Origin: Escherichia coli
GTDB taxonomy: Bacteria; Pseudomonadota; Gammaproteobacteria; Enterobacterales; Enterobacteriaceae
Strand: one strand, 5' to 3'
Assembly: GCF_030013205.1 (NCBI RefSeq)
Contig: NZ_CP122648.1
DNA length: 64,000 bases
The position numbers and the translations under genes were made by a program. Of this stretch, positions 1-8,714 are shown piece after piece; the first letter of the stretch is position 1; each line of letters begins with the position of its first letter. The notes below the pieces were generated by a model. It was not told the DNA's origin. It made no database searches and saw nothing but the letters and a program-made list of their open reading frames with translations.

Positions 1-59
1 CAATGATTAATGTTGCGTCTTTGTTAGAGGTCAGATCAGTTGTTTTGGGACTCTGCCTC

Positions 60-383
60 AAAATCCGGTAGGGGGTGCGGAAACGGGTTACAAAGGTTAC
101 ACCCCCCTAAAACACACTATAATCATATGATTTTAAAACATATTTCTTGTAACCTTTTTGAGGTTACAGAAGGTTACACGAGGTTACAGCTCTCAAAAAC
201 AGATTAATTATCAATTAATTATAAATTTAACCTGTAACCAACAGTAACCACTACATAAAGGTTACATGTAACCCTGTTGTAACCCGTTTGTAACCTTTTA
301 AATTTATTATAATATATTGATATATAATACGTTTTTCTGTTTGTAACCTTTGTAACCCGTTTCCGCACCCCCCCCCGGATTTT
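60..383. repeat. iteron-like array: about 14 copies of heptamer GGTTACA/TGTAACC in AT-rich DNA, bracketed by about 43-bp near-perfect inverted repeats (60-102 and 341-383)
   Basis: direct reading; IR arms AAAATCCGGTAGGGGGTGCGGAAACGGGTTACAAAGGTTACA vs reverse complement of 341-383 differ at 1-2 positions. Confidence 0.8.
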
Positions 384-628
384 AGCGCGACCCTTTAAAA
401 TGTTAATTAAACTCACTAACTCTGTATCACTCTCATTAACTCTCTATGATTGAAATGTATCTCACTGCTGTTTAACTCTTTCTGATAATCAAGAAAGGAG
501 AGCAAAAAACTGATGGCGCTACCGCTGCAATATGGCCACCATCGCATTGCTGTTACCGTTGGCTTTGGCCAACAAAAAAGGCCAGTGGAAAACTGACCTC
601 TTTTGCTGTGAATGTAGTGTTCTGCGGG

Positions 629-1630
629 TTACTCTACTGGCTCTTTTTGTTCAGTGAATGCCATGTTAGCTATCGGGTTAAACCTCATGGCATCCGCCAG
701 ATAGTCGGGGGAAAAATGCGCATAAGTCATCGTTTGCTGGATAGTCGCATGTCCAAGAATCCGTTGTAATGTAACGATATTCCCACCGTTAATCATAAAG
801 TGTGTGGCAAATGTATGACGCATGACATGCGTAGCCTGCCCCTTCGGTAAATCCGGCTTCACCTCCTGAAGGATCTCCCGGAACTTCAGATAATCAACCT
901 GATACAACAACCCCGTCCGGCGGGTCTTAATCAGCGGCACGACCGAATCAGCCACAGGAACCGAACGGGATTTTCCGTTTTTGGTGTTAAAGAACGTCAC
1001 CCGGTTGCCAATGATGTGCTCTCCACGTAGTTCCGATGCTTCACTCCATCGGGCACCAGTAGAAAGACACAGAATGGCAACACGACGCGCATCACCCTCC
1101 AGTCGCTCAAGAAGCCGCTCAATCTCATCATCAGAAAGAAAGGCCATCTCTGTATTCTGAATTTTTAGCTTGCGTATACCGCGTACAGGGTTCGGGTTGT
1201 GAAAGACCTCAGCTTCAATCAGCACCGTGAACATGGTAGACAGAACGCACAAGTCACGATTAATGCTGGATGGCATTAAGCCGGCCTGTAATTTCTCTGA
1301 CCGATACTCAAGCATAAATTTTTGCGTCATCTGGCTGGCACGCGGATCTCCCATTTCACGAATCACTTTCTCCATCCGGATCCTGTAGGTATCACCGTAA
1401 GCCTGGTTACGGCCATCAAGCATCCACCATATATCAAGCAGCTCTGATAATCTCCGTCGATCAGCAGGTTTAGCCAGCCATGGGTTGTTATGGAAATTCT
1501 GTAAAATATGTTCTTTGAAGGCCTCCGCACTCCCTTTCCTGACAAAAATTTTACGTATCCGTTTGCCGTACGCCCCTTGGGGCCTGATATCGAGCAGCCA
1601 TCGCCCATCATCCATCTTTCTGATCGACAT
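629..1630 (-). CDS. int: tyrosine recombinase, P2-type phage integrase family
   Basis: 333 aa; N-terminus and C-terminal HxxR...Y catalytic region (HTFATHFMINGGNIVTLQRILGH...YAHF) resemble P2 Int; ATG and TAA verified on minus strand. Confidence 0.85.
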   Translation of the reverse strand: MSIRKMDDGRWLLDIRPQGAYGKRIRKIFVRKGSAEAFKEHILQNFHNNPWLAKPADRRRLSELLDIWWMLDGRNQAYGDTYRIRMEKVIREMGDPRASQMTQKFMLEYRSEKLQAGLMPSSINRDLCVLSTMFTVLIEAEVFHNPNPVRGIRKLKIQNTEMAFLSDDEIERLLERLEGDARRVAILCLSTGARWSEASELRGEHIIGNRVTFFNTKNGKSRSVPVADSVVPLIKTRRTGLLYQVDYLKFREILQEVKPDLPKGQATHVMRHTFATHFMINGGNIVTLQRILGHATIQQTMTYAHFSPDYLADAMRFNPIANMAFTEQKEPVE

Positions 1631-1632
1631 AC

Positions 1633-4302
1633 TTAAGCCCCCTCCTTGTTACTAAATATCCAGCATTTCAATACCTCCTTCTCTCTGGCCTCGGCTATTC
1701 CCCTCCCGGCGTTCGCCTGTCTGGATACCTCGCTACGGACGGGCTTGTATCCAATCAGCGATCGAGAACGGCCAGCCTTGAGAAGCTTTATCATTTCGGG
1801 ATTGGTTTGGGTCTTCACGTGGTGAACGGCGGCAACCTGCTCAAGTTGCGGGATACTGACGGCAAACTCATTCTGCCGTCCCTTGCCAAAATGATTTACG
1901 CCGTATGCTGTGATGCCGTCCAGATAGTCGAACGCCTCCCAGAACGCCATCACTTCCGGCAAGTCATCCATTACCGCTTTAGCCTGCTCCTCTGCCATTC
2001 GCTCCAGTTCCAGACATGTGGCATCAAGCCATTCATCCGGGATATCAATAACGCATTTCAGCGCCCTGACCAGTGCAATTAGTTGCGCGTGATTTTTGGC
2101 AATACGCTGATGGCGAATATTCTCGCAACCGTAAAGGCGGGTTGTTTCAGAATCCGAGAGTGCCATAAACAGATCCATAATCGCCCGCTCCTGGCTTACT
2201 GCCCGATGGATAAAACCTGATACCTGCTCAACGGGGTAAAGCTCCAGCCGTTTTGCTGCCAGTCGGCTATCTGGTGAGTGGCGTTTTTTATCGGTGTATA
2301 TACGTACCAGACGCTCGATAATTGCCGATGAGGCGTTTACCGTGGCATTCTGCGCAATCACGACAGCCCCTTTAAAAACGGGGTCATATGTGGCGTTATC
2401 ATTAGTTTTAACACCACGTACCCCAATACCACCGCCGTTATAGAGGCTTTTCAGGTTATCAAAGTCAAACGCACCTCTTTTTTGCGCATTGTCCCCCCGG
2501 TCTGCTTCAATCAGAACAACAGGTAATCCGGCGACCTGTCCAAAAGTTCGCTTCCAGCCTGATTCCGATCCTTTGGTTGGATCAACACCTTCATAGTTGT
2601 CACGGCCACACAAACGCCAACAAAAATCAATCAGCGTTGTTTTACCCGTTCCAGGCTCTCCGGTAATCTCAAGAAAAGGGTAAGACGTGTTTTTCTGCCT
2701 GATTTGTTCGCTGAACAACGAACCCAGCCAGAAGGCCAGGGTAATAATTCCCTTTTCACCAAAAGCCAGCCAGAGATCTTCCACCCAGGATATTGTGAAT
2801 TTATCCGGTTTTTTATAGTTAATCTGCAATATTGGTTTTTTATTCAATGGTTTTGCGTTTATGCCATCAATTTCAAAATAATCCTCTTCATTGATTTCGT
2901 AGGTTTTACCATTACAAACCGCGACATCATTAAACAGCCACGCGCCAATCTCTTTGTTGTATCCGATAAAATCCTGACCGATAACATTTTTTATTGCGGG
3001 AAGGTCATTTTTTATTAATGCATCAAGGTGCGCAGTCGTTCCGGTATAAATACCGCCTTTTGCCACATGCAACAGGCGTTTTTTAAATTCAGATGCGGAT
3101 GTTAATTGTCCTGATGTAAAGGTGTTTTTCACCGTCGCACCATCCGGGAACGTAACACGGAAGTAATACCATGCTTCATCCGTGTCATTGTTTCGAATGT
3201 AATAAAGCGGCGCCGGGTTACAGTTTGCGATTTCTTTTACAGCGCCGGATTCCTTAAGTGCAATTTTGCGCGCTTCATCTTCGTCAACATTTCGCTCATT
3301 TATGACGCGTTCAACAGCCTTCATATGGCGCTCAATATCCAGTTTGAACCAGAAAACACGGTTATCAAAAGTAAAATGAAATTCCTTTCGCTCACGAAAG
3401 GAAAACATTATCAGCGCCTTATCTCTCGGAGATTTTGCCAGCAATAAATCACCGTAATAACGGTATCTTTTCACATCATGGCCACGCAGCTTTCCGGCGA
3501 TGTGTAAATCATTCCAGTCGCGTTTATTGCTGTTTTTTCCTGGTAACGCCGCTGCCGTTCTCCAGCCGTCTTCGGCGCTGCGTTCTGCATGTTTTTTCGC
3601 ATAACGCTCACCCGCACGCCCGTTATCCAGCGCCCACACGATAACCGGACGGGGATTATCCCCGCACAGCTTCGCCAGCTCTTCCAGCGCCTTATCAGGG
3701 TAGTTTACGGCAGACATGACAGAAACGGCCGCAATGCCATTCTGGTTAAGGCTGATGGCATCAAAGATACCCTCACAAATCCAGATTTCTTTGGCCTTGC
3801 TTAAATCATCTCCCGGATAAGCCCACCACAACCCCTTGTAGCTGCCGGAAAAATTCGCCTTGCGCGCGAAGCGTTCCGGTCGGTCTATGATGCGCTCCCA
3901 CCACACGCCGTCAGCCAGTGTAAAACGCACAGTAGCGGCCTGTTCGCCGCTTTCCTTGTCCTGGTATCGCTCCTGAGTAAATGCTCCCTTCAGTGGCTCC
4001 ACAGCAATATTGCGTGCTTCCAGAAGATAAGCTGTCGCCGCTGCGTATGGATTGTCTTTCGTGCTGATATAGCGATCTGACCATGATGAAAACACATCCG
4101 GGTAAAGTTCTTTGGTCAACAGGTCTGTACCGCATTTATTTTCGCGCCCACAGTGCACGATGTACGGCCTTTCAAGGCTGGTAAAGAGCTCCTTCTTTCC
4201 ACATTGCGGACAAACACCATACCGGAGGTAGTTATTTTCTTCTTTGAAGTTGTAATCACGGATAAGACGGTTAATAATCTCTTTTCTGGTGTTATGTTTC
4301 AT
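1633..4302 (-). CDS. replicative primase-helicase (N-terminal zinc ribbon, TOPRIM-like primase core, C-terminal P-loop NTPase)
   Basis: 889 aa; CPQCG...HCGREN zinc motif, WICEGIFDAISL, Walker A GEPGTGKTT; stop lies 2 nt from integrase start. Confidence 0.8.
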   Translation of the reverse strand: MKHNTRKEIINRLIRDYNFKEENNYLRYGVCPQCGKKELFTSLERPYIVHCGRENKCGTDLLTKELYPDVFSSWSDRYISTKDNPYAAATAYLLEARNIAVEPLKGAFTQERYQDKESGEQAATVRFTLADGVWWERIIDRPERFARKANFSGSYKGLWWAYPGDDLSKAKEIWICEGIFDAISLNQNGIAAVSVMSAVNYPDKALEELAKLCGDNPRPVIVWALDNGRAGERYAKKHAERSAEDGWRTAAALPGKNSNKRDWNDLHIAGKLRGHDVKRYRYYGDLLLAKSPRDKALIMFSFRERKEFHFTFDNRVFWFKLDIERHMKAVERVINERNVDEDEARKIALKESGAVKEIANCNPAPLYYIRNNDTDEAWYYFRVTFPDGATVKNTFTSGQLTSASEFKKRLLHVAKGGIYTGTTAHLDALIKNDLPAIKNVIGQDFIGYNKEIGAWLFNDVAVCNGKTYEINEEDYFEIDGINAKPLNKKPILQINYKKPDKFTISWVEDLWLAFGEKGIITLAFWLGSLFSEQIRQKNTSYPFLEITGEPGTGKTTLIDFCWRLCGRDNYEGVDPTKGSESGWKRTFGQVAGLPVVLIEADRGDNAQKRGAFDFDNLKSLYNGGGIGVRGVKTNDNATYDPVFKGAVVIAQNATVNASSAIIERLVRIYTDKKRHSPDSRLAAKRLELYPVEQVSGFIHRAVSQERAIMDLFMALSDSETTRLYGCENIRHQRIAKNHAQLIALVRALKCVIDIPDEWLDATCLELERMAEEQAKAVMDDLPEVMAFWEAFDYLDGITAYGVNHFGKGRQNEFAVSIPQLEQVAAVHHVKTQTNPEMIKLLKAGRSRSLIGYKPVRSEVSRQANAGRGIAEAREKEVLKCWIFSNKEGA

Positions 4303-5121: not shown

Positions 5122-5304
5122 TTACCCCTCCATGATTTTTACTGCGCATTTGTGGGTTAATCGCCCCTGTTCATTCGTGCGGCTGTACTCCATGCGGCTG
5201 GCAGCACGCAGGGCATCATCACAGGTCTGATATTCCCTGACATGAAAAAACTGACGAACGTCGCCGCTCTGGCAGTTAATCAGGGTGATAAGGAGCTTAA
5301 ACAT
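5122..5304 (-). CDS. hypothetical small protein, about 60 aa (MFKLLITLINCQ...)
   Basis: ORF track 5122..5382; ATG overlaps stop of upstream 57-aa ORF (ATGTTTAA). Confidence 0.4.
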   Translation of the reverse strand: MFKLLITLINCQSGDVRQFFHVREYQTCDDALRAASRMEYSRTNEQGRLTHKCAVKIMEG

Positions 5305-5470
5305 TGCACGCCTCCCGGATACGAATACGGGCAACAGAGACCAGACGGGATGCCGGAAGCAGGGCGCGCGCTTCGCGCTCACTGGCGGCGGTAACGGTAT
5401 GAAGGCGGATATTTTTACCGTGGCACTGCATAAAGCGCCAGATAAAATCAGGGCGTGTTGATATAGCCAT
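5297..5470 (-). CDS. hypothetical small protein, about 57 aa (MAISTRPDFIWRF...)
   Basis: C-terminal part of track ORF 5297..5824; ATG preceded by AAGGAG; upstream part of the track ORF judged noncoding. Confidence 0.4.
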   Translation of the reverse strand: MAISTRPDFIWRFMQCHGKNIRLHTVTAASEREARALLPASRLVSVARIRIREACNV

Positions 5471-5594
5471 TTTGGCGGCTCCTTTGTCTAATTTACGGAG
5501 TCTCGCCAGCACGCTGCTAAACATGGTGGCGGGACGTAACAGGGTTAGCAGACTGGTGACAAAGAAACCAGCAGGCCTTACGGCCTCCCCATTA

Positions 5595-5718
5595 CGCCCC
5601 GCCATAATACGGGAAAGGGTGGTATTACGGGCACAAAAAAACCGCATTACGGAAATATAGCGGCTACCCGCTTTGTCAATCAGGCTGCTAAACCCGGCAC
5701 CCGCTTTATGAGGTGCGG
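5595..5718 (-). ncRNA. conserved three-block noncoding element, copy A (hairpin, then T7-terminated block, then ATTATGGCGGGGCG on minus strand); candidate sRNA or leader attenuator
   Basis: blocks CGCCCCGCCATAAT, GCACAAAAAAACCGC and CAGGCTGC.AAACCCGGCACCCG.TT..TGAGGTGC recur in same order and similar spacing at 59946-60075. Confidence 0.4.
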
Positions 5719-5865
5719 GCAAACGATACGCCATGACAAAAAAGCGAGTCAAGCAATATTGCAAATTATTTTTGCGTGATTGCGCTGAGTAATTGATTTT
5801 TAAGAGTAAAAAAGCCATAATCATTTCTGCCTATTATTTCTTATTGTTGGTTTCAGGTGCACTAA

Positions 5866-8639: not shown

Positions 8640-8714
8640 TGGTGTCCCCTGCAGGAATCGAACCTGCAATTAGCCCTTAGGAGGGGCTCGTTATATCCAT
8701 TTAACTAAGAGGAC
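8640..8714 (-). tRNA. argW: tRNA-Arg (anticodon CCU)
   Basis: reverse complement reads GTCCTCTTAGTTAAATGGATATAACGAGCCCCTCCTAAGGGCTAATTGCAGGTTCGATTCCTGCAGGGGACACCA with T-arm GGTTCGATTCC and CCA end. Confidence 0.9.

Follow-up and report, generated by a model that had tools for sequence, protein, structure and literature searches.

The origin of the PICI EcCICFT073 has been tested on plasmids, and PICI origins of the layout considered here are sufficient with pri-rep alone (PMC6092414; Fillol-Salom et al. 2018). In SaPIs (Ubeda et al. 2007 and 2012; as set out in PMC7145576), sets of iterons lie around an AT-rich region immediately 3′ of rep. The P4 record annotates as crr 300 bp of DNA just 3′ of alpha that contain 10 octamers (TGTTCACC, the type 1 repeats to which the alpha primase-helicase binds) in both orientations, and ori is a second cluster 4.5 kb from crr; repeats on the same strand are spaced 9 bp apart in crr and 10–11 bp apart in ori.

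Here we describe an array of short repeats on the chromosome of Escherichia coli ETEC4067. It occupies positions 60–383 of a 64,000-nucleotide stretch of DNA (the window), whose start corresponds to NZ_CP122685.1 position 1551867. Comparative evidence indicates that this region is very probably an iteron origin recognised by the primase-helicase of the satellite that carries it. The relevant features, in window coordinates, are as follows.

1633–4302, minus strand: primase-helicase of 889 aa (phrog_1139, "DNA primase"), the proposed iteron binder
629–1630, minus strand: int333, a 333-aa P2-family tyrosine integrase encoded between the primase-helicase gene and the array
60–101, plus strand: left terminal inverted-repeat arm, with a G-run, then CGGAAAC, then GGTTACA at 86–92 and 95–101, 9 bp apart
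102–147, no strand: first AT-rich spacer, with block ATGATTTTA conserved in the alignment of 16 relatives
96–123, plus strand: promoter-like match GTTACA-16-TATAAT from a motif scan, the count of such matches being not above chance
148–188, plus strand: inner left heptamer group, with an inverted copy at 148–154 and direct GGTTACA at 162, 172 and 182 (10-bp spacing)
189–232, no strand: central AT-rich segment, the putative site of bending and melting, which contains an exact IHF consensus (TATCAATTAATTA) at 209–221
233–295, minus strand: inner right heptamer group, with TGTAACC at 233, the variant AGTAACC at 243, the palindrome GGTTACA-TGTAACC at 260–273, and TGTAACC at 278 and 289 (11-bp spacing)
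296–341, no strand: second AT-rich segment, with a minus-strand IHF-consensus match at 310–322
342–383, minus strand: right terminal inverted-repeat arm, with TGTAACC at 342–348 and 351–357, then GTTTCCG, then a C-run

A sequence-only reading of this DNA had described about 14 copies of the heptamer bracketed by a near-perfect 43-bp inverted repeat. By motif count, the 324-bp region holds 13 exact copies of GGTTACA/TGTAACC (window 86–357) together with two one-mismatch copies (226–232 and 243–249), and five further exact copies are found elsewhere in the 64-kb window. The enrichment that had been proposed is real: 5000 dinucleotide-preserving shuffles of region 60–383 itself gave a mean of 0.17 heptamers and a maximum of three, against the 13 observed, and the commonest 7-mer of any sequence in a shuffled region reached no more than nine copies. 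The inverted repeat is likewise present and 95% complementary, with arms of 42 rather than 43 nt (60–101 and 342–383) and 240 nt between them. The region is AT-rich (35% G+C) and lies directly downstream, on the minus strand, of an operon (629–4302) made up of the primase-helicase and integrase genes, both as previously stated.

Heptamers on the same strand follow one another at intervals of 9, 10 or 11 bp. As in PICI and SaPI origins, groups of repeats (86–188 and 233–357) are arranged around AT-rich DNA (189–232), and a second AT-rich stretch follows at 296–341. Exact matches to the IHF consensus number two in the array versus four across the remaining 63.7 kb of the window, and the central match is retained in the arrays of seven of nine relatives, including arrays built from other heptamers. 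A motif scan of the array found no DnaA box, promoter and terminator scans returned matches no more numerous than chance, and an Rfam search placed no RNA family in the array, its only matches being C4, isrK and the tRNA elsewhere. As a single strand, the 324-bp region folds into one long hairpin (−76 kcal/mol, z = −14.7). Between the array and int333 lies a conserved non-coding block (384–628) that carries TAACTCT three times (417, 437 and 473). A terminator-like hairpin was noted by eye on its minus strand at ≈573–599 (GGTCAGT-TTTCC-ACTGGCC followed by a T-run) and is absent from the output of the terminator scan.

The array is contained in a 12.6-kb satellite integrated at a tRNA-Arg gene (window 8640–8714), the other end of which is marked by a degenerate copy of the tRNA 3′ end ≈4 kb to the left of the window. 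Reading leftward from the tRNA along the minus strand, the satellite first encodes a P4-type integrase and an AlpA-like HTH regulator, then the C4 and isrK RNAs together with an Icd-like gene, several small ORFs, the 889-aa Toprim/P-loop protein and int333; beyond the array, 1.1 kb without coding sequence is followed by an Ogr/Delta zinc-finger gene, a gene for a P2-family major capsid homologue, and MazEF. The element is thus a phage satellite with a mixture of P4-like and PICI-like traits. With the EcCICFT073 element it shares a terminal integrase, an AlpA-like regulator, an Icd-like gene and a helper-phage capsid homologue, and with P4 it shares the C4/isrK immunity RNAs and a Delta/Ogr-like gene. 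Its helper is likely P2-like rather than lambdoid. No similarity to P4 cos was found anywhere in the satellite.

Several other features of the element were recorded, some in coordinates of locus L001, in which 19818–19844 corresponds to window −182 to −156. The C4 antisense RNA (79.7 bits; window 5522–5609) and isrK (52.1 bits; 5635–5716), both on the minus strand and above the Rfam gathering threshold, overlap the 175-aa Icd-like ORF (window 5297–5824) in an arrangement that resembles the P4/P1-type immunity region. The capsid homologue (423 aa; L001 16842–18113, minus strand, ≈1.9–3.2 kb left of window position 1) adjoins a 236-aa ORF of no assigned function and parallels the lambda-type capsid gene of EcCICFT073; no sid or psu gene is recognisable in the satellite. 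The Ogr/Delta zinc-finger gene (L001 19273–19455) and a 77-aa ORF are surrounded by ≈10 copies of the near-palindrome GTAWTAC(G) spread over 1.1 kb (L001 18835–19913), which may be operators of some regulator. The motif TTGTGCA occurs three times at an exact 10-bp spacing at L001 19818–19844 and a fourth time at L001 19746, just left of the array, and TGCACAA/TTGTGCA clusters also stand beside the arrays of loci L003 (7640–7745) and L044 from Arsenophonus (9720–9745). Two tandem copies of TTGTACCCGTTT near the distal end of the satellite (L001 16042–16066) and one inverted copy near the P4-type int gene (28478–28488) are likely arm-type sites of the P4-type integrase; TTGTACCCGTTT differs by one base from the array unit TTGTAACCCGTTT. 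The satellite stands in tandem with a degraded KplE1/CPS-53-like prophage (intS, gtrA-family genes and torI; L001 2700–16000), and the two have the argW attachment sequence in common, with a repeat at L001 2709–2723.

The presumed initiator, the 889-aa protein, comprises an N-terminal CxxC motif, a Toprim domain (aa 172–268) and a P-loop (aa ≈545), followed by a winged-helix-like domain at the C terminus. This order parallels that of the P4 initiator, with its zinc motif, Toprim primase, SF3-type P-loop helicase and C-terminal binding domain. BLASTP similarity to P4 alpha is only marginal, being confined to short stretches of the Toprim domain and of the Walker A motif (E of 6e-4 and 5e-3), and the two proteins carry different PHROG and Pfam signatures, which speaks against orthology. 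The 584-aa Pri-Rep of EcCICFT073 has only the P-loop region in common with the 889-aa protein, and a comparison with PDB sequences gave no match. Members of phrog_1139 occur in E. coli satellites and in P2-like phages of Escherichia, Ralstonia and Pseudomonas.

The last 260 residues were modelled with AF2 (pLDDT 76; beyond residue 80 mostly above 85), and the model terminates in a winged-helix-like unit. The only long structural matches of this modelled region were to two replicative helicases, SCCmec Cch and the Rep of a SaPI; the matches are weak (Foldseek E = 0.017) and amid helical-bundle noise, and the origin-binding domain of P4 alpha was absent among the fold matches listed. The C-terminal region bears a faint resemblance to the SaPI and SCCmec proteins. 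SaPIs, which are elements of Gram-positive bacteria, keep pri and rep as separate genes and show no sequence similarity to the locus described here.

The array itself can be set against the same systems. Like the EcCICFT073 origin, whose retrieved sequence is a TCTACC/GGTAGA repeat array of the same general layout, it consists of short repeats (6–7 bp) in both orientations, in sets around AT-rich DNA and on the 3′ side of the primase/initiator gene. It differs in the repeat itself (GGTTACA rather than TCTACC), in the integrase gene that intervenes between initiator gene and array, and in a 42-nt terminal inverted repeat that reaches past the heptamers. Like the P4 repeats, the heptamers occur in both orientations one helical turn apart, and the region matches crr in its length of ≈300 bp. 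The P4 octamer TGTTCACC is replaced here by GGTTACA, a single cluster stands in place of the separate ori and crr, and the inverted symmetry of the array contrasts with crr, which is composed of two direct 120-bp repeats. Overall, the comparison with P4 ori/crr and PICI origins that had been proposed shows the array to be similar to both P4 crr and the tested EcCICFT073 origin (PMC6092414).

We next looked at arrays near relatives of the primase, using a one-genome-per-species scan that identified 35 loci encoding such relatives. Several of these loci have an array laid out like that in the window: on one side two outer heptamers, an AT stretch and three inner heptamers, in the middle an AT-rich centre with ATCAA, and on the other side three inverted heptamers, another AT stretch and two inverted outer heptamers. 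In these distant relatives, too, the array ends form an inverted repeat. GGTTACA arrays accompany primases of 54–90% identity in Escherichia sp., Erwinia/Izhakiella and Arsenophonus, whereas the repeat is GGTAAC(A) in a Neisseriales genome (45% identity) and AGGTAAT in Psychrobacter (38% identity). Escherichia phage ESSI2_ev239, which is P2-like and has a primase 51% identical, carries an array of the same architecture built from [CA]RTCACA. In L002 and L039 the array comes straight after the stop codon of the primase gene, in other relatives it lies 1–4.5 kb off, and in the window the 1-kb int gene comes in between; in L002, an E. coli relative, int333 lies on the other side of the array. A k-mer scan within ≈4 kb of the primase gene found no array in Pseudomonas, sphingomonads, Xanthomonas, Edwardsiella and others, many of them GC-rich; their arrays may lie further off or consist of longer degenerate repeats. 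In these comparisons the architecture goes with the primase family from genus to genus while the heptamer changes.

Of 5426 complete E. coli genomes, 64 carry the region at 80–100% identity, in each case on the chromosome, and window positions 1–700 gave no DNA match in phage and plasmid collections. When 16 relatives are aligned, the spacers vary but most heptamer cores do not, and the inner left heptamers (148–188) are kept in almost all. The array is therefore real and conserved. The 16 arrays split into two subtypes: type A is built from RGGTTACA with the arm GCGGAAACGGGTTACAAAGGTTACA, and type B has CGGTTACA at nearly every copy with the arm GCGCAAAGCGGTTACAACGGTTACA.

We then asked which neighbouring genes follow this division, aligning nine full-length loci from ogr to the start of the primase gene and counting sites fixed between the subtypes. 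Fixed sites number 51 in the array and 119 in primase codons ≈400–867 (window ≈1700–3100), compared with 0–1 in the int333 gene, where several hundred polymorphisms are shared between the subtypes, and none in the Toprim half of the primase gene or the upstream flank. The part of the primase gene coupled to array subtype is thus its 3′ part. Likewise, when 16 loci are compared, 22 columns in the final 186 aa of the primase are diagnostic and none in int333. Some of the 22 fall within the predicted wing and helix, one is a KCW→KCR change, and the residues fixed between types include K140G, Y150R and W179R, as numbered in this alignment. There are three int333 alleles, each found with both array subtypes.

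The array subtype therefore co-segregates with the helicase/C-terminal half of the primase-helicase, in complete linkage across a freely reassorting int333 gene, in a set of 9–16 related loci that are phylogenetically non-independent and in which a cassette-like double crossover swapping int333 alone would also preserve the linkage. Although recombination within this family is common over distances of about 1 kb, array and helicase/C-terminal half remain paired, which is the behaviour expected of an initiator and its iterons. In SaPIs, origin specificity resides in the C-terminal part of the initiator. A match between iteron and initiator, as in PICIs and SaPIs, is seen here both in the A/B linkage and in the change of heptamer as the primase diverges. 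The earlier proposal of an origin-like array targeted by the adjacent primase-helicase thus has strong indirect support from the subtype linkage, from the architecture conserved with other heptamers in distant relatives, and from the similarity to P4 crr and the EcCICFT073 origin, with the primase-helicase as the probable binder.

The position of the array next to int333 raises the alternative, also put forward in the sequence-only reading, that it is an attP, an arm-type site set or a multimer-resolution site of this integrase. int333 shares 49% identity with P2 Int and 88% with the Int of a P2-like phage, and the array adjoins its gene on the 3′ side, where P2-like phages keep attP; P2-family Ints moreover bind 7–8-bp arm repeats spaced ≈11 bp apart, an IHF consensus sits at the array centre, and in distant relatives the array is often beside an integrase and close to the element end. 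Against this, the arm repeats that abut the int stop codon in P2-like phages (TGTCCACA, TGTCCAT and TGTGGAC) are different from the heptamer, and phage ESSI2_ev239 has both elements at once, with its attP and TGTGGAC arm repeats next to the phage int gene and its own array 1.4 kb away. The N-terminal arm-binding part differs by ≈50% among the three int333 alleles, all of which occur with both subtypes without any change in the heptamer core. Arrays of the same layout stand beside integrases that are not int333 homologues in Neisseriales and Psychrobacter, and the Arsenophonus locus has no recombinase nearby. An attachment site would be split into attL and attR, whereas in every genome among the matches listed the array is whole and internal to the integrated element. 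We consider this reading very unlikely, and int333 appears from these comparisons to be a neighbour of the array and not its partner. It is the second integrase of the satellite, besides the P4-type integrase at the tRNA end; its three alleles reassort among otherwise similar satellites, and matching the helper phage is one possibility for its role.

A short segment with flanking inverted repeats next to a tyrosine recombinase gene, with promoter-like matches at both edges, also recalls the fim switch, in which case int333 would invert the 240 bp enclosed by the 42-nt repeats. All 58 near-full-length matches listed (90–100% of the query) align as a single co-linear piece in one orientation, no inversion of the segment was seen among the 60 genomes listed, and the interior of the putative switch is itself a quasi-palindromic iteron array. 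The promoter-like matches at the edges are not above chance expectation, and the uncoupling of int333 alleles from array type argues against a switch as it does against an attachment site, making inversion extremely improbable. Because the array is never split or inverted in the genomes listed and no arm repeat links it to int333, the attachment, resolution and inversion readings are all unlikely.

Taken together, the subtype coupling, the layout conserved with a changing heptamer, the separate attP of the phage and the match to known origins argue for an origin-type array that serves the primase-helicase rather than a site of int333. We think it probable that the array is the satellite's replication origin, or origin and crr-like cis region in one place. 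A point against it is that P4 requires two iteron regions, where the present satellite has a single cluster. A distinctly unlikely variant of this assignment is that the primase-helicase binds the array as an accessory cis element, either crr-like or a site for copy number or incompatibility (handcuffing), and that the true origin lies elsewhere. The position and size of the array do fit P4 crr rather than P4 ori, and the A/B subtypes look like incompatibility or specificity groups. The 12.6-kb satellite, on the other hand, has no second heptamer cluster, only single copies at chance level; AT-rich segments suited to melting lie inside the array; and PICI origins laid out in this way need no more than pri-rep to function (PMC6092414).

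If the array acts as the origin, initiation might proceed as follows. The C-terminal DNA-binding part of the Toprim/SF3-type protein would bind the heptamers one helical turn apart, and their opposed orientation in the two halves would cause two helicase assemblies to load head to head. IHF would bend the array centre and one of the AT-rich segments would melt, whereupon the Toprim domain would prime and the host polymerase would replicate bidirectionally after helper induction. In such a scheme, a single array would combine the roles of P4 ori and crr.

Heptamer binding does not account for the whole of the terminal inverted repeat. All four arm differences between types A and B are mirrored in the opposite arm, and arm sequence varies by lineage, yet the two arms match within each lineage. 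This holds for the part outside the heptamers (the G-run and xCGGAAAC), which changes between lineages always in both arms and is not explained by binding to the heptamers. Such covariation could reflect an extra role for the terminal repeat, beyond that of two outward-facing heptamer pairs, as a cruciform or single-strand hairpin over the 324 bp or as a second symmetric protein site, although we regard this idea as doubtful. Were it correct, P4's separate ori and crr would here be merged as one palindromic origin, and the A/B subtypes would be compatibility groups that allow several satellites to coexist per cell.

A literature search for GGTTACA iterons returned nothing relevant, and the literature searched describes no origin for the phrog_1139 primase family. 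Origins of this kind are well known from PICIs and P4, and what is new is most likely the example for the phrog_1139 family; the principles of origin function in satellites and phages are unchanged by it. For that family, the locus provides a concrete candidate origin and a predicted initiator–iteron specificity pair in the form of types A and B. It may also aid the annotation of satellites that combine P4-like immunity, a PICI-like origin and a helper-type capsid gene, and it would offer a compact pri-ori cassette for replicon building.
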